The position numbers were made by a program, and so were the translations under genes. The notes under the pieces are model-generated. The model saw only the letters and a list, made by a program, of their open reading frames with translations, ran no database searches and was not told the DNA's origin. A stretch of 64,000 bases of DNA from Halobacteriovorax sp. JY17 (GTDB lineage Bacteria; Bdellovibrionota; Bacteriovoracia; Bacteriovoracales; Bacteriovoracaceae). This document shows positions 8,599 to 59,765 of this stretch, one piece after another. The stretch is taken from positions 1,114,910 through 1,178,909 of the forward strand of contig NZ_NJER01000001.1 of the NCBI RefSeq assembly GCF_002753895.1. The letters run 5' to 3'. How positions within the stretch are numbered: the first letter of the stretch is position 1; each line of letters opens with the position of its first letter.

Positions 8599-9267
8599 CT
8601 ATATTATTTCTCTTTCAATTATTTCTAAACAATCAATTGGAGTCTTCGCCTTAAAACTTGGACCAACTTCATCCAAATACTCTTCATTCACATGAGTACA
8701 CCAAAGTGCTGCGATTGACTGACACCCAAAGGATTTCGCACCTTGGATATCAGTTATACTATCCCCAATCATAATGACTTTACTCTTATCTACATTCTCT
8801 AGCATTTCCTCTAGTCCTTTAGGATGAGGTTTAGGAATGGTGTCGTCTAGGCATCTAAATTCGTAAAAGAATTTAGCCACATCAAGAGATTTCAAGATGG
8901 CCATTGTACTCATTCTGTCACGGGCAGTCCAAACATAGAGCCTATAGCCTGACTCACCAAGCTTAATCAGAAGCTCTCTCATACTATCAAATAAGACATA
9001 TTTAAGCTGATCTTGATTTGAAATCTCAATCCATCTCTTAAATAAGGCATCTCTAATTGTTTCATCTGAGATATTTAGTCCAAAGCGTAGGGCCAAGTCA
9101 TACATATCAGCCGTATATTTTTCAACCACTTCAGATCTCGGCACTTCTCGCTTTAAAACTTCTGACATTAGCTGCTGAATGCCTTTGATTATCCCCTCTT
9201 GACTAGAAATAAGTGTGCCATCGCAGTCAAAAACTATATGACCCTTAAATTCCTCAATATTAGGCAT
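8599..9267 (-). CDS. HAD-superfamily hydrolase (phosphoglycolate phosphatase-like)
   Basis: FDCDGTL motif I, KPHP, MIGDSITDIQGA motif IV. Start taken at MPNIEE (9267). Confidence 0.9.
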   Translation of the reverse strand: MPNIEEFKGHIVFDCDGTLISSQEGIIKGIQQLMSEVLKREVPRSEVVEKYTADMYDLALRFGLNISDETIRDALFKRWIEISNQDQLKYVLFDSMRELLIKLGESGYRLYVWTARDRMSTMAILKSLDVAKFFYEFRCLDDTIPKPHPKGLEEMLENVDKSKVIMIGDSITDIQGAKSFGCQSIAALWCTHVNEEYLDEVGPSFKAKTPIDCLEIIEREII

Positions 9268-26392: not shown

Positions 26393-26514
26393 ATGATTCC
26401 TCCTTGTTAGTCCGTCCTTTCTAAGACTTGATCACCGTACCGTGAGGATCAATAAGCATACTGCTATAGATGAATTTTAATGAAACAGTCGTTGTGACCT
26501 TTGTTTCATAAAAC

Positions 26515-51547: not shown

Positions 51548-52468
51548 ATGAAAGAAGACATCAAAGATATTCAAACACAACTCGATAAGAGAGCGGCCTC
51601 TAAACTAAGAATTGAACCCCTTAACGATTTCAAAAATAGCAATCTTAAGAATATATTTATTCTAAGTGAATCCGACTTAGGGGTTGTTAGAAATGGAGGA
51701 AGAAGAGGAGCGGCCTTTGGGCCAAAGGCCATCGTCAACACTCTTTTAAAAATGACTACCCATAAGCAAAAAGAGAATGGGTTAAAATCTATTAGAAGTC
51801 TCCAGCCTTATACTCCTTTTACTCAGCAACAAAGTGAAGATATTTCTTCAATTACCGAAATCTTGAAAAGTTATACTTATTCTCATATTTGTCACCTAGG
51901 AGGAGGACACGATCACATCTACCCTCTCTTAAAAGCGTTAAATACGAGAACAAATAAAATCGCAGTAATAAATATTGATGCCCATCTAGACACAAGGACA
52001 GACCTAGAGACTCACTCTGGAACTCCTTTTAGACAATTTGCCAACGAAGTCGAAGGAGACTTTAAATTAATTCAGCTAGGTATTCACGACTTTGCAAATG
52101 AAATAAGTAACTATACTCCACTTAATAAGAGCGAGATGGAAATCTATTCTGTTTCTCAACTAAGAAAAGAGACCTCGAACTTTACAGCGGTTCAGGCCTT
52201 TATGGATAAAGTCACTCAAGATCTTTGTGAGTTTACAATAATTCTAAGTTTAGACTGTGATGCCATTTCCTCCCAAAGTATGGAGGCCGTAAGTGCTGTT
52301 AACCATAACGGACTTGAGCTCAGCTTTGTGAGAGATATTTTCTCTTGGTACTACTCGTTAGACCAGAAGCAGAAATTTTGTGGAATTTATGAGTACAATC
52401 CAATTTTTGATAATTTGTCCAATAAAGGGGCAAGAGCATTGGCCTCATTAATTGAGCCATTTCTATAA
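51548..52468 (+). CDS. hutG: Formimidoylglutamase (arginase family)
   Basis: GV.RNGGR.GA..GP, LGGGHD, INIDAHLD, DCD and E.NP motifs. Confidence 0.75.
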   Translation: MKEDIKDIQTQLDKRAASKLRIEPLNDFKNSNLKNIFILSESDLGVVRNGGRRGAAFGPKAIVNTLLKMTTHKQKENGLKSIRSLQPYTPFTQQQSEDISSITEILKSYTYSHICHLGGGHDHIYPLLKALNTRTNKIAVINIDAHLDTRTDLETHSGTPFRQFANEVEGDFKLIQLGIHDFANEISNYTPLNKSEMEIYSVSQLRKETSNFTAVQAFMDKVTQDLCEFTIILSLDCDAISSQSMEAVSAVNHNGLELSFVRDIFSWYYSLDQKQKFCGIYEYNPIFDNLSNKGARALASLIEPFL

Positions 52469-52475
52469 AAAAGAC

Positions 52476-52514
52476 GAAAAAAAACCCATGAAGAAATTCA
52501 TGGGTCTTTTTTTT
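52476..52514. terminator. Bidirectional intrinsic terminator
   Basis: ACCCATGAA-GAAA-TTCATGGGT (52484-52505), flanked by an A-run and a T-run. Confidence 0.85.
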
Positions 52515-52572
52515 GAGAGACATTTTTTGGAGATATGAAAAAATCCTTTCTTCGTAACTCCTACACACACAC
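52476..52572 (-). ncRNA. Putative sigma54-dependent small RNA (about 95 nt)
   Basis: Lies between a consensus -24/-12 promoter and a terminator; no credible ORF; AAGGA sits in a predicted hairpin loop. Confidence 0.45.
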
Positions 52573-52581
52573 TTAATATAT

Positions 52582-52597
52582 AGCAAGACGTGTGCCA
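52582..52597 (-). promoter_or_regulatory. sigma54 (-24/-12) promoter
   Basis: Minus strand reads TGGCAC-ACGTC-TTGCT, an exact consensus with correct spacing, in intergenic DNA. Confidence 0.75.
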
Positions 52598-52694
52598 ACT
52601 TTTCGATTGTCCCTAATAAATATAACTATCTGTATTTACTGGATTAAGAATGCGACGCTTCCGCCATTTTTATGACAAGGACCGATTTCAAGAG

Positions 52695-52943
52695 TCAACT
52701 TACTGACTCACCTCTTAGAAATTTTCCGAGATAGTAACTCGCATCTTCCAATGCGTCATGAGCCGATTCTCTTCCAAAAATAGATTTAACATGCTTCCAA
52801 ATTTTTCGTGTCTCGATCTGAACAATATCAATCTCGGCCATAAAACCGTCTTCAATTTGATTAACAGATATTCTTCCCTCACGGAAGTCATCTGTTTCAA
52901 TTTCAACAAAGAATTCTTTTGGAAAGTCTTTATTCAATTTCAT
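52695..52943 (-). CDS. Small hypothetical protein (82 aa)
   Basis: ORF with AGAGAG RBS-like sequence and a protein-like composition. Confidence 0.65.
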   Translation of the reverse strand: MKLNKDFPKEFFVEIETDDFREGRISVNQIEDGFMAEIDIVQIETRKIWKHVKSIFGRESAHDALEDASYYLGKFLRGESVS

Positions 52944-52971: not shown

Positions 52972-55900
52972 CTACTCTTTCTTTACACCATTATCAATAA
53001 TTTCATTAAAATCTTGTAGAGAAAATCTCTTTCTTGCTTTCTTCTCTTCTACAGGTTCTTTCTTAACCGATGCAGGCGCCCTTTTGGAGAGAACTTTTTC
53101 GATAACTGCTGCGGAAGTCTTATCTTTTTCAATAACTTTAATTTCACCAGTTCTTTCATCTTTTTCTAGGATAATTTCTGTTCCACCTTGAGTGATGACT
53201 TCAGTACCATACTCAGAATAGAGTTTTGCAAGCTCGCTCTGGTCAGCTGATCGTACTTCGTTAATATTTTGATATGATACAACACTTACATTACTAGAAT
53301 TTTGAAGCTGTGAATCTTCAATCTGAGTTGCGCTCAGTAATGCTCCTGAAGAACTTCTAGGAGCTATGGAACTAGAGCCTCTCGAAGCTTCACTATCGAG
53401 AGAGCCTCCTGCGGAAGACGTGCTCGATGAGTACTGAGAAGGAGCTGAGTTTGGAGTGCTTGATTGTGATTCAGTTGAACTCTGAGAAGAACGACTTGCA
53501 CTTCTCTGTGGAGTTGAACTCGCCTCAGCAGCTCTCTTACTTCTAGTTGACGAGAAAACACTTTTAGAGTTCTCTCTCTCTAAAGAATTAGAGTCTAATT
53601 TTGAAACACTTTCTCTCGTTGATGCCGGAACTCTTTCCTTCTTCTTTTTCTTCTCAGCCTTTTTCAATTCAAGTTCAGATTTTGCAAGCTCTAACTTCAT
53701 TTTTTCTAAATCAACTTTTAACTTATTAAGCTCTAACTGGTCTTTCGTTGTTGTGTTTTCTTTACTAAAACTATTCTCTGTCGGATTAACTTCTCGCGAC
53801 TTACTATTATCAATTTTTGTTATTTGTTGAGTTGCTGAATTTTGCAATCTCTCCTCAAGATCTTGAATCCTCTTTTCCATTAATTCTTCTTTACTAAGCT
53901 CTCTTTCTTCTTGTTGACGATTATTAAACTTGGTGTTTCCAAGCATGAAGTCACTAGTATTAGAATTAGAATTAAAATTCATTACAGGTTTAGTATCTAG
54001 CGGTACAGATGAGTCGAAACTCGACTTAGACTCGACGACAGAAGGAACTTCGCTCCTCTCCAAGTTCGTACTTTCAAAGTCAGAAATTTCTTCACCACTC
54101 TCTACCGGAGTATCAACAGTACTGGCTACTTCTTTTACTGACTCTGTAGCGTCGCTTATTGCATCTTCAACGGGAATATTTGCAAGTTGTGGCTCTTCCA
54201 CCACGATTGCTTTAGGTATATTCTCACTCGCTCCCTCAGGATTAGGATTGGATAGAGCTCTATCAATAATATCTCGAACGGCATTATCCACTGGGCTTGA
54301 GTTGTAGAACTTTGAGACATCTATCACAAAACTTCCGCCTCCCCAATTGATAACGTTTCCTCCACCATAACTATTAGTCGGATTTAAAAGAGCCCCAGTC
54401 CCTTTACCAGTGTAATTTCGCCAATCAAATGATAAAGAAAGGTTTTCCTTATCACTTTCATCTGAGCCTGCAACATATAAGTCAACAATTTGATTACGTT
54501 TACCTGTCGCTAAAGTTTCTGACATTTCCATAGAAACGCCTGTAGAAAAGTCTACATTATTTAATTTCTCATCTTCAAAATTAAGTATGGCATAAGCGTT
54601 TAAAGGCTTACTTTCATCCACTAACTTCTTAGAGCTATTTGAAAAGAAACTTCCGTATCTTTTAAAAATAGAATCAAAGACTCTTGACTCTGATTTATTT
54701 TTAGCTACACAGTAGAGTTGATCAAATTTAAATTTATCGTTTTTATACCTATTCTCTCTTACTTTCTTTGCTGTTTCTTCGTTTAAAGAAAAGCTCAGTC
54801 TTGGCTTAGGATCAGATATAGCAGCACAAGAGTCTTTCATAGTTTTAACTAATTTCTCACACTTATTATTTAATTTCTCATTTTGCTTATCTTCCATAAA
54901 ATTCTCAAGAGATGCGATAATTTGAGGTAACTCAACTTTAGATCTTTGAAAAATTTTATTTGGATACTGCTCACTAAAGTAATCAATATACTCACCTACA
55001 GATTTTTTTAGACTGACGTCGTTAGTATAGAAGTAAGGCTTATTAGGAAAGTTATCTATTCCCTTAAACAGGTAGAAGTTTTTCATACTTACTAGAAAAG
55101 CTGTATCCATTCTTCTTTGGTAATCAGCTAACCCCACTGCTGCATAGAGATTCGCGTCAGTTCCCCTCCACTTAGCCTGAAGTCTTCTAGCAATATTTTC
55201 TACTAGCTCCTTATGTTGAAAATTTCCAAGCGACTTATATTTAGAGTCATTATTTGGGTATCTCTTATTAATCTCATTTAATTTAAAAGCATCTGCATCT
55301 GTTTGTTTTAAAAAACTTTCATTTACCCAGTGAGTTGGAAAGTAGATAAAGTCCTCACCTGAAGTTCTCTTTTTTCTTAGTTCAGGAGCTTGCGGCATAG
55401 AATCTATGTCCATTCCAACACAATTCTTGCAGTCTTTTAATGAATCAGAGAAGCTCTCTTTTAATGCAAGGAGATCTGACTCCTTACAAAAAGGCTTTAT
55501 TTCTTCCATAAGTGTCTTTGAGTCATCACAGGTTTGTCTAGAGTAAGAATCTAAATACTTCATACCATTATTACTTGATGGCATATTGGCAATTTCTCTA
55601 TTCTTTTCTTCTCTATATTCTTTAAGCGCTTTAAAACTATTTAAAGCGATATTCTTCTTACTTTCTTTTATAAGATTTTCATCAAACTTTTTAAGATCTT
55701 CATCTGTAACTTTTTGCTCGTAAGTTGATTCACCAACGCATCCGCAAAATCTATCTTCGTCAGTATATTGGTCGCAGTAATTATAAAGACCAACTTTCAT
55801 CAACTCACTCAATTGTTCGTCAACAATACCTTCTCTATTTCCTTCACAAATAGCTTCAGCCATTTCTCTTTGGGCCTTAGCGGCTTCCTTAACTTTCTCA

Positions 55901-56028
55901 ATAGAGATTTCTGCTCCTCCCTGCTCAACTCCCTCAACTTTTTGTGCTCCTTCCCCAGGAAGTGCCTGCACTGACCAAGTGGTAAACAAGAAGAATGTAA
56001 ATATAATTGCTGTCTTTACTTTATCCAT
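52972..56028 (-). CDS. Large exported hypothetical protein with coiled coil and Ser-rich C-terminal region
   Basis: Start MDKVK after AGGA, signal peptide, N-terminal Cys cluster, acidic linker, coiled coil, Ser-rich tract, RVPAS/RAPAS motifs. Confidence 0.8.
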   Translation of the reverse strand: MDKVKTAIIFTFFLFTTWSVQALPGEGAQKVEGVEQGGAEISIEKVKEAAKAQREMAEAICEGNREGIVDEQLSELMKVGLYNYCDQYTDEDRFCGCVGESTYEQKVTDEDLKKFDENLIKESKKNIALNSFKALKEYREEKNREIANMPSSNNGMKYLDSYSRQTCDDSKTLMEEIKPFCKESDLLALKESFSDSLKDCKNCVGMDIDSMPQAPELRKKRTSGEDFIYFPTHWVNESFLKQTDADAFKLNEINKRYPNNDSKYKSLGNFQHKELVENIARRLQAKWRGTDANLYAAVGLADYQRRMDTAFLVSMKNFYLFKGIDNFPNKPYFYTNDVSLKKSVGEYIDYFSEQYPNKIFQRSKVELPQIIASLENFMEDKQNEKLNNKCEKLVKTMKDSCAAISDPKPRLSFSLNEETAKKVRENRYKNDKFKFDQLYCVAKNKSESRVFDSIFKRYGSFFSNSSKKLVDESKPLNAYAILNFEDEKLNNVDFSTGVSMEMSETLATGKRNQIVDLYVAGSDESDKENLSLSFDWRNYTGKGTGALLNPTNSYGGGNVINWGGGSFVIDVSKFYNSSPVDNAVRDIIDRALSNPNPEGASENIPKAIVVEEPQLANIPVEDAISDATESVKEVASTVDTPVESGEEISDFESTNLERSEVPSVVESKSSFDSSVPLDTKPVMNFNSNSNTSDFMLGNTKFNNRQQEERELSKEELMEKRIQDLEERLQNSATQQITKIDNSKSREVNPTENSFSKENTTTKDQLELNKLKVDLEKMKLELAKSELELKKAEKKKKKERVPASTRESVSKLDSNSLERENSKSVFSSTRSKRAAEASSTPQRSASRSSQSSTESQSSTPNSAPSQYSSSTSSAGGSLDSEASRGSSSIAPRSSSGALLSATQIEDSQLQNSSNVSVVSYQNINEVRSADQSELAKLYSEYGTEVITQGGTEIILEKDERTGEIKVIEKDKTSAAVIEKVLSKRAPASVKKEPVEEKKARKRFSLQDFNEIIDNGVKKE

Positions 56029-56369
56029 ACCTGTCCTGATCGGTCGGTTACTCAAAAATACTTAGTTACTCAAGAAATATTATATCGCGTTAGATAAGAT
56101 TAAAGCTCTTTATTAATGCCTAGTTAGTACCCCCTCAAAAAATCCAAATACTTACGCCCCTCCACAGATAATATTTACATATAGATTCGAGCCATTAAAT
56201 TTGGGCGAATTCTCAACAAATTACAAATATTGCTCCAGAAGAAAATTGCCTCATGGCCATTAGCAACATAAGAAATCACTTAATTTATCGTAATTACAGG
56301 AGTACAATCTGATCAATTCAACAAAACTGAAAGAAAACCATTCACTTATTTTAAAGGGGTAAATATCCT

Positions 56370-58997: not shown

Positions 58998-59765
58998 ATG
59001 AGTTCTGATAATTTATTGACTTTAAATCTAAAAATTTGGCGTCAAAAAAACAACAAAGAAAAAGGTGAAATCGTTGATTACACAATTGATGGAGTTTCAC
59101 CAGATGCATCTTTCTTAGAGATGCTTGATATTCTAAATGAAAAGTTAATTGCAGAAGGCAATGACCCTGTTGCCTTTGATCACGACTGTAGAGAAGGTAT
59201 CTGCGGAATGTGTTCACTGATGATTAATGGACAGGCCCACGGCCCTGAAGCAGAGACAACGACTTGTCAGCTCCACATGAGAAAATTCAAAAATGGTGAA
59301 ACTATTGTAGTAGAACCATTTAGAGCGAGAGCATTTCCAGTTCTAAAAGATCTTATGATTGATAGATCAGCCTTCGATGACATTATCGCTTCAGGTGGTT
59401 TTGTTAATGTAAATACTGGAAACGCGCAAGATGCTAATGCGATTCTAGTGCCAAAAGAAAATGCTGAACTTGCAATGGACGCGGCTTCTTGTATTGGTTG
59501 TGGAGCCTGTGTAGCTTCATGTAAGAACGCTTCTGCAATGTTATTTGTTTCTGCAAAAGTTTCTCAACTAGCACTTCTTCCTCAAGGAAAACTTGAAGCT
59601 GAAGAGAGAGTAAAGAATATGGTTTCTAAAATGGATGAACTCGGTTTTGGAAATTGTACAAACGAAGCTGAATGTGAAGCCTCATGTCCGAAAGGAATTT
59701 CAATTAGCAATATTGCTAGAATGAATAGAGACTTTCTTTCTGCGGCTGTAAAATCTAAAAGTTAA
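58998..59765 (+). CDS. sdhB: Succinate dehydrogenase/fumarate reductase iron-sulfur subunit
   Basis: [27 protein letters not shown] and CTN...C...CPKGI clusters. Confidence 0.96.

Follow-up and report, generated by a model that had tools for sequence, protein, structure and literature searches.

A predicted sigma54-dependent small RNA with a 5'-terminal GU run in the Bacteriovoracaceae

Introduction

What is made from a sigma54 promoter that meets a terminator hairpin about 95 nt further on? This question is raised by a locus on the minus strand of the predatory bacterium Halobacteriovorax sp. JY17 (3.47 Mb, 36% GC; RefSeq assembly GCF_002753895.1, contig NZ_NJER01000001.1). The locus lies in a stretch of 64,000 nucleotides that was analysed as a whole and is called the window below, its positions being counted from the first letter. 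The initial annotation, derived from these letters alone, had proposed an unannotated, sigma54-dependent and activator-gated small RNA. Comparison with related genomes strongly supports this proposal for the predicted RNA, with promoter, RNA body and terminator recurring together in single copy in 49 genera. Further support comes from a promoter spacer that varies freely, from covarying stems, from activator-type dyads upstream, and from the presence of rpoN and nine enhancer-binding proteins in the genome.

We have little doubt that the interval is a real RNA gene, present in single copy and predicted to specify a transcript of about 95 nt. The RNA family is very probably new and not described before, and it would be suited to Rfam even if only the conservative part of our account holds. 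As the best overall explanation, in which we place slightly better than even confidence, we propose a sigma54-driven small RNA that would pair with mRNAs through the GU run at its 5' end.

The RNA gene and its distribution

The predicted transcript (positions 52477 to 52572, minus strand) begins at about 52571 +/- 2, as judged from promoter geometry, and ends in the U-run of the terminator. It comprises, in this order, (GU)5, a compound hairpin, the unpaired stretch UGUCUCUC, an A-run, the terminator hairpin and U8. The layout initially described was therefore recovered in full, i.e. promoter, start near 52571, hairpins, A-tract and a 9-bp hairpin with U-run are all present.

In a blastn comparison of the intergenic region with relatives only the promoter and the RNA body gave matches, which came from 12 genera. 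For a wider search we built a covariance model (R1) of 65 positions that reaches from the GU run to the A-run and from which promoter and terminator were deliberately excluded. This model has exactly one match in each of 114 of the 151 Bacteriovoracaceae genomes (49 of 69 genera); the 127 genomes that represent 24 other families of the Bdellovibrionota gave no match. In all 29 inspected match loci the GU run is preceded, at a distance of 9-12 nt, by a -24/-12 promoter, and a hairpin with T-run stands downstream; the same holds for 19 of the 20 lowest-scoring matches. A pattern scan of named genomes found the element in Halobacteriovorax, Bacteriovorax stolpii, Peredibacter and many metagenome-assembled genomes of the Bacteriovoracaceae; the few pattern matches elsewhere have no promoter and were taken as chance. 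Because it is conserved across the family, the element stands far beyond chance, and as a predicted RNA it is specific to the Bacteriovoracaceae, i.e. Halobacteriovorax, Bacteriovorax, Peredibacter and their relatives.

The initial annotation had made its reading depend on a promoter kept in relatives and had pointed to Rfam and to covariation in related genomes as checks. The promoter turned out to be conserved across the family, stem-loop 1 of the RNA covaries (see below), and no Rfam family was matched. At the gathering threshold Rfam gave no matches in the whole window; at permissive E-values only terminator-like matches appeared, the best of them at 25 bits where the gathering score is 55. 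In a search of the full-text literature no paper dealing with small RNAs in Halobacteriovorax or Bacteriovorax came up.

Promoter and upstream control region

The promoter TGGCAC-ACGTC-TTGCT (-24/-12) occupies positions 52582 to 52597 on the minus strand, with TGGCAC at 52597-52592, the spacer ACGTC, and TTGCT at 52586-52582. It is the only zero-mismatch match to this 16-mer in the window. Genome-wide the consensus TGGCAC-N5-TTGCW has 10 exact matches where about 1.6 are expected. Eight of them lie 5' of a ribosome-binding site and start codon, and the genes behind these eight, judged by their N-termini only, mostly suggest exported proteins or lipoproteins, one being flagellar-rod-like. The two matches without a following open reading frame (ORF) are the RNA locus and a second site about 90 kb away.

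Conservation of the promoter was judged on homologs that had been found independently of it, as the 113 unique loci used for other counts were collected by a pattern requiring GG and GC, whose constancy there is by construction. Among the 20 low-scoring homologs inspected in this independent way, the GG at -24 and the GC at -12 are kept in 19, and the N5 spacer varies freely. The exception, genome G050, has TGGCAC followed by TTGT instead of TTGC at -12. Just upstream of the promoter AAAGT is conserved, and the GU run starts 9-12 nt after TTGCW in 111 of the 113 unique loci and 13-14 nt after it in the other two. The genome encodes RpoN (Sigma54_DBD match at C1:1593842) as well as nine Sigma54_activat proteins, five of which carry an HTH_8 DNA-binding domain. 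Sigma54 promoters require an activator ATPase, so that an enhancer-binding protein of this type would be needed here. We are confident that transcription of the predicted RNA would depend on sigma54 and an activator.

A likely place for such an activator lies upstream. The distal dyad GTCA-N6-TGAC (52694-52707) is exact and overlaps the stop codon of an 82-aa ORF, while the proximal dyad GTCA-N6-TGGC (52663-52676) has one mismatch. Across the unique loci the exact dyad occurs in 74 of 113, where shuffled sequences give 0.35, and it does so with a spacing of six only. Two exact dyads are found in 32 loci and at least two sites with at most one mismatch in 57 of the 113. The sites cluster at two distances from TGGCAC, about 115 and about 85 bp upstream, the distal dyad belonging to the former group and the proximal dyad to the latter. 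The entire JY17 genome contains 13 exact sites. The pair has the layout expected of tandem sites for an enhancer-binding protein, so these dyads are likely activator sites, for which the five HTH_8-bearing activators are candidate binders.

Between dyads and promoter a site for integration host factor (IHF) is weakly supported. The full IHF consensus WATCARNNNNTTR was detected in 14 of the 113 loci (1.2 expected) and a relaxed core at a fixed position in 24; the JY17 copy, CAG-N4-TTA at 52623-52632 (minus strand), fits the relaxed core only and is regarded as tentative.

Three further sites in the window match TGGCAC-N5-TTGCW with one mismatch, all on the minus strand (2805-2820, 9205-9220 and 59438-59453). 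With at most one mismatch the window thus holds four matches against 1.1 by chance, and the three one-mismatch sites are not significant alone. In the whole genome only one other sigma54-like promoter, TGGCAT-CTCAC-TTGCT at C2:715486 (region C2:715401-715776, outside the window), has an exact dyad, which lies 85 bp upstream of it. The 72-aa lipoprotein-like ORF behind this promoter may be co-regulated with the RNA.

The second ORF-less site, about 38 kb outside the window (C1:1076404-1076629, minus strand), reads TGGCAC-ACGCC-TTGCT in an AAAAGT context. The candidate RNA that follows it, about 185 nt in length, is closed by a long helix (GGCCUUGAUCAG/CUGAUCAAGGCC), contains the motif UCCYAYCUUA twice and has a hairpin resembling a terminator. 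This candidate is kept, with a varying promoter spacer, in all five other genomes of the genus and is without GTCA-N6-TGAC dyads; blastn found no match in other genera, and Rfam gave none. An interaction of the two RNAs via AAAUCCU/AGGAUUU was considered and rejected, the motif not being conserved within the genus.

Structure of the RNA and coding potential

The 98-nt RNA folds with a minimum free energy of -28.4 kcal/mol (z = -4.3 against shuffles). At the predicted +1 stands the invariant (GU)5 run (52563-52572), the candidate seed, which is followed by stem-loop 1 (52529-52561). In the latter an outer GGAG/CUCC stem encloses GAAGAA-AGGA-UUUUUUC, with an inner stem of 6-7 bp and an invariant AGGA loop whose GGA lies at 52546-52544. 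Then come the single-stranded, invariant UGUCUCUC (52515-52522), whose core GUCUCU is predicted to be unpaired, and, adjoining it, the A-run with the intrinsic terminator (52477-52514). The terminator stem ACCCAUGAA/UUCAUGGGU (52505-52484) has 9 bp including GC pairs and a UUUC loop, and U8 ends at 52477. All these parts lie on the minus strand. The terminator was also detected by a consensus scan and is bidirectional, i.e. common to the RNA and the convergent gene beyond it. Every inspected homolog has a species-specific GC-rich hairpin with T-run at this place, which is outside the search model.

Stem-loop 1 was followed through 84 distinct sequences. In these, 93% of the cells are paired and double (compensatory) changes are present in 6 of the 11 pairs; in the model-fitted alignment none of the 500 shuffles and none of the slid controls reaches the covariation score observed. 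Three blocks are near-invariant, namely the 5' (GU)5, the AGGA loop and GUCUCU(C). Their invariance in pattern-derived loci is by construction, but they hold equally in matches that were not selected by the pattern. The AGGA loop had been noticed at the outset; the GU run and GUCUCU(C) had been overlooked.

That no sensible ORF lies in the interval had also been stated initially, and this proved correct. Two small ORFs of 35 and 92 aa were rejected as coding, as they are not conserved and end at differing places. A frame starting M-S-L from an AUG before GUCUCUC was rejected as well: relatives have ACG, UCG, AAG or UUG instead. As the AUG is not conserved and the downstream stops vary, the predicted RNA is judged to be non-coding. 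Nor would it be a leader, because the next gene is convergent in 83 of the 114 loci.

Candidate target mRNAs

Complements of the invariant unpaired blocks were tested for enrichment in translation-initiation regions of a rough set of 3,405 genes (91.5% coding). The complement of the GU run, ACACACAC, occurs between -48 and -20 in nine genes where 0.45 are expected (20-fold, P 1.5e-9). No other 8-mer among the 30 most significant ones listed is enriched by as high a factor; by P value ACACACAC ranks 18th of about 60,000 8-mers, after promoter words rich in AT and the sigma28 -10 box. The GT-reading strand of the same repeat, GTGTGTGT, occurs in no gene in this leader window. The 8-mer most significantly enriched 20-48 nt before start codons is CCGATAAG, a sigma28-type -10 box that stands before 17 genes where 1.1 would be expected.

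Predicted pairing with the first 12 nt of the RNA gives duplex energies of -15 to -19 kcal/mol for a TolC-like gene, dksA, thyA, dnaE, smc and nrdB, compared with a mean of -5.5 +/- 2.4 kcal/mol over all genes. The candidates confirmed by Pfam are DnaE, SMC, NrdB, ThyA, Tdk, ParA, a ParB_N protein, DksA and LpxC, as well as a class-V aminotransferase, a fatty-acid desaturase and a TolC-like protein. Genes for DNA synthesis and chromosome segregation predominate among them. As judged by eye only, the AC runs stand a few nucleotides downstream of AT-rich, -10-like stretches and would thus be near the predicted 5' ends of the mRNAs.

If these leaders were targets, their AC runs should go with the RNA. 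We compared 15 RNA-bearing with 15 RNA-lacking genomes from 30 genera and scored AC runs of 6 nt or longer in the 130 nt that precede the start codon. At dnaE a run was found in 9 of 15 genomes with the RNA and 0 of 15 without, at thyA likewise in 9 of 15 and 0 of 15, and at nrdB in 7 of 11 and 0 of 7. Together these genes have an AC run in 25 of 41 cases with the RNA versus 0 of 37 without it, and as a control other ORF starts in the same loci gave 6 of 153 and 3 of 126, respectively. The leader sequences around the runs are not alignable, so that conservation concerns the run as such. In genome G017, which belongs to another genus, dksA, the ParB_N protein and a 135-aa secreted protein have orthologs with ACACACAC in their leaders. 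On a tree of DnaE the presence of the RNA needs at least 4-5 changes, and genome G016, nested among carriers, is without the RNA and without all three AC runs.

Pairing of the GU run with AC runs is thus the best-supported mechanism, on account of the strand asymmetry, the invariance of the GU run at the 5' end and the conservation at the level of orthologs. Nevertheless, we give it only an even chance of being the main mechanism, and several points weigh against it. Six of the 15 RNA-bearing genomes have no AC run at dnaE, six have none at thyA and five have none at both. The co-occurrence of RNA and AC runs is suggestive and not significant after correction for phylogeny: there are 4-5 independent contrasts, in about 2.4 of which the AC state is concordant and in none opposite (p >= 0.25), and with so few contrasts the association cannot reach significance. 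Whole-genome counts of ACACACAC have medians, worked out by hand, of about 8 and about 3 per Mb with and without the RNA, yet the ranges overlap and are confounded by composition. Near start codons neither the GUCUCUC complement GAGAGACA nor any of its 7-mers is over-represented, and two-site pairing, i.e. an AC run combined with GAGAC at the ribosome-binding site, is not significant in the JY17 genome (P 0.05-0.24). No activator gene adjoining the RNA gene was found among the conserved neighbours. Finally, the AC run could serve some other function as a strand-specific element of DNA or RNA.

Proposed mechanism and alternative explanations

We infer production of the RNA, its pairing, the binding of CsrA and the identity of the activator from the features described above, and the following sequence of events would connect them. 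A signal-responsive enhancer-binding ATPase at the two dyads about 85 and about 115 bp upstream would fire the sigma54 promoter, and transcription would end at the intrinsic terminator. The RNA would then most likely act in trans by base pairing and without Hfq, its 5'-terminal (GU)5 pairing with (AC)n runs at or near the 5' ends of mRNAs for DnaE, NrdB, ThyA, Tdk, SMC, ParA/ParB-like proteins, DksA, LpxC and the TolC-like protein. The outcome would be a link between the activating signal and the replication and growth programme of the predator.

A more far-reaching version is offered only tentatively and is, on balance, doubtful. According to it an Hfq-independent riboregulator with a (GU)n seed would, throughout the family, hold a regulon of replication, deoxynucleotide (dNTP) synthesis and segregation, comprising dnaE, nrdB, thyA, tdk, smc, parA/parB-like genes and dksA, under one sigma54 activator and would switch the obligate predator between an attack phase without replication and a growth phase with it, with CsrA as matchmaker via the AGGA loop.

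Independence from Hfq is suggested by the genomes themselves. An Hfq pull-down had been proposed initially, but Hfq (PF17209) was not found in the JY17 genome (100% complete) or in 30 genomes of the family, while control genomes were positive. Because no Hfq was found in these 31 near-complete genomes, its involvement is unlikely, and riboregulation in the Bacteriovoracaceae must use helpers other than Hfq.

The alternative that survives best places the seed elsewhere in the RNA. GUCUCU(C) is as invariant as the GU run and predicted to be unpaired; it resembles an anti-Shine-Dalgarno sequence and could occlude ribosome-binding sites of the GGAGA(C) type, leaving the GU run a role in stability or transcription initiation and the AC match a coincidence. 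GAGACA or GAGAGAC is indeed present at the ribosome-binding sites of tdk and the TolC-like gene in JY17, and also at thyA (genomes G013, G015 and G048), dnaE (G013) and nrdB (G023). We nevertheless hold this to be unlikely: the missing enrichment of GAGAGACA and its 7-mers and the non-significant combination with the AC run, both given above, count against it, and the top duplex scores are unremarkable and belong to a functionally incoherent set of genes.

A slightly smaller probability is assigned to a CsrA decoy, in which the AGGA loop and the upstream UAGGAG would bind CsrA and so relieve repression, e.g. of flagellin, when the activator fires. The initial annotation had drawn attention to CsrA/RsmA motifs in this RNA. 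All homologs keep the AGGA loop unchanged, with compensatory substitutions in its stem; 15 nt upstream there is a second GGA, and CsrA is encoded in the JY17 genome. The fliC leader (window 26393-26500, minus strand) has AAAGGAC about 30 nt before the start codon, and its ribosome-binding site carries AAGGAGGA; these are GGA motifs at positions typical of CsrA sites, in a putative two-site layout as in CsrA-repressed flagellin mRNAs. Known Csr/Rsm decoys, however, carry many GGA loops, and here only one GGA is exposed, the other being buried in the GGAG/CUCC stem. Moreover, csrA adjoins fliW (C3:485969-486693), which is the partner-switch type that is normally antagonised by a protein, and CsrA was found in 30 of 30 family genomes tested, 15 with and 15 without the RNA. 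A decoy would also leave the invariant GU run and GUCUCU(C) unexplained. As a single exposed GGA makes no Csr-type decoy and the distribution of CsrA does not track the RNA, we treat CsrA binding as a possible accessory feature rather than the core mechanism. The AGGA loop is probably a protein handle for which CsrA, as helper or second target, is the obvious candidate.

It is improbable that the (AC)n/(GT)n repeats act as DNA-level elements, such as an operator for a growth-phase regulator, with the RNA gene as a mere regulon member whose function lies elsewhere or in cis-antisense action on the 3' end of the neighbouring arginase-fold mRNA. For such a role speak the start of the repeat at the predicted RNA start, its place just downstream of -10-like stretches in the mRNA genes (by eye), and the tight synteny and shared terminator with the arginase-fold gene. 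The strict strand bias, with AC in nine leaders, GT in none and the RNA reading GU, is predicted by RNA-RNA pairing and not by an operator in duplex DNA, and the overlap with the neighbour's 3' end includes none of the RNA's conserved blocks. That there is no functional gene at all, only a chance promoter-like motif beside a neighbour's terminator, is effectively refuted by the family-wide single copy of promoter, body and terminator, the covarying stems and the conserved dyads.

Genomic surroundings

The convergent gene directly downstream of the RNA encodes an arginase-fold protein (51548-52468, plus strand; HutG-like, below the cut-off) and ends 8 nt before the terminator region. In 83 of the 114 loci a member of the same family holds this place. 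Other conserved neighbours encode a GYF_2 protein, an OmpA-family protein, a TPR protein, TsaD and a metallo-beta-lactamase-fold protein, among others. Upstream of the RNA in JY17 lie two ORFs on the minus strand, the 82-aa ORF (52695-52943) with its stop codon inside the distal dyad and a 1027-aa ORF (52972-56055), neither of which has a match in Pfam or NCBIfam. In three RNA-less genomes another gene fills the region downstream of the arginase-fold homolog (orthology uncertain at 40-47% identity) and no remnant of the RNA was seen.

Significance and comparison with known systems

How a predator shuts down and restarts replication between attack and growth phases, as in Bdellovibrio-like life cycles, is a long-standing open question. 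The locus described here contributes a sharply delimited, family-wide RNA gene, an activator dyad through which the regulator can be sought and a handful of candidate targets. It also illustrates the conservation of a predicted small RNA where Hfq was not found.

Among known RNAs, CsrB and RsmZ share with our RNA a GGA in a hairpin loop and a genome encoding CsrA, but here there is one loop GGA and not many, CsrA is partnered by FliW and Rfam gives no match.

The enterobacterial GcvB pairs through its GU-rich R1 seed with C/A-rich elements upstream of the ribosome-binding sites of many mRNAs. A GU-rich single-stranded seed facing C/A-rich leader elements is what we predict here, too. The seed of our RNA differs in that it strictly repeats one dinucleotide and stands right at the 5' end, and the candidate regulon concerns replication and dNTP supply instead of amino-acid transporters. 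In addition, the RNA is predicted to be sigma54-dependent and Hfq-independent, and there is no homology.

GlmY and GlmZ of the Enterobacteriaceae, which are controlled by GlrR, sigma54 and IHF, resemble our locus in the sigma54 promoter, the repeated dyads and the IHF-type sites between them. GlmY sequesters a protein and GlmZ pairs with glmS. The GTC/GAC half-sites found here are reminiscent of those of GlrR, whose spacing is two bp longer than the GTC-N8-GAC of our dyads; there is no homology, and the support for IHF at our locus is weak. The GlrR consensus at glmY is TGTC-N10-GACA, and the IHF consensus is WATCARNNNNTTR (PMC3045617).

Qrr1-5 of Vibrio are RNAs of about 100 nt that are transcribed in dependence on LuxO and sigma54, so that they report the state of an AAA+ activator gated by a signal; they have upstream dyads, an intrinsic terminator and an invariant single-stranded seed, and require Hfq. 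Size, a consensus sigma54 promoter with activator dyads, terminator and invariant seed all have their counterparts in our predicted RNA. Differences are that sequence and Rfam similarity are missing, that no Hfq was found in the family, that GTCA-N6-TGAC is not a LuxO site and that there is a single copy per genome.

In terms of life style the comparison is with other predators formerly classified as "deltaproteobacterial". Pxr of Myxococcus reportedly has a sigma54 promoter. The attack-phase small RNAs of Bdellovibrio were described as having FliA-type promoters and no homologs elsewhere (PMC3627812), and they differ from our RNA in this promoter type. Model R1 found nothing outside the Bacteriovoracaceae, the 127 genomes sampled from other families of the Bdellovibrionota included. 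What Pxr and the Bdellovibrio RNAs have in common with the RNA presented here is that all are small RNAs proposed to gate transitions in the life cycle of a predatory bacterium.

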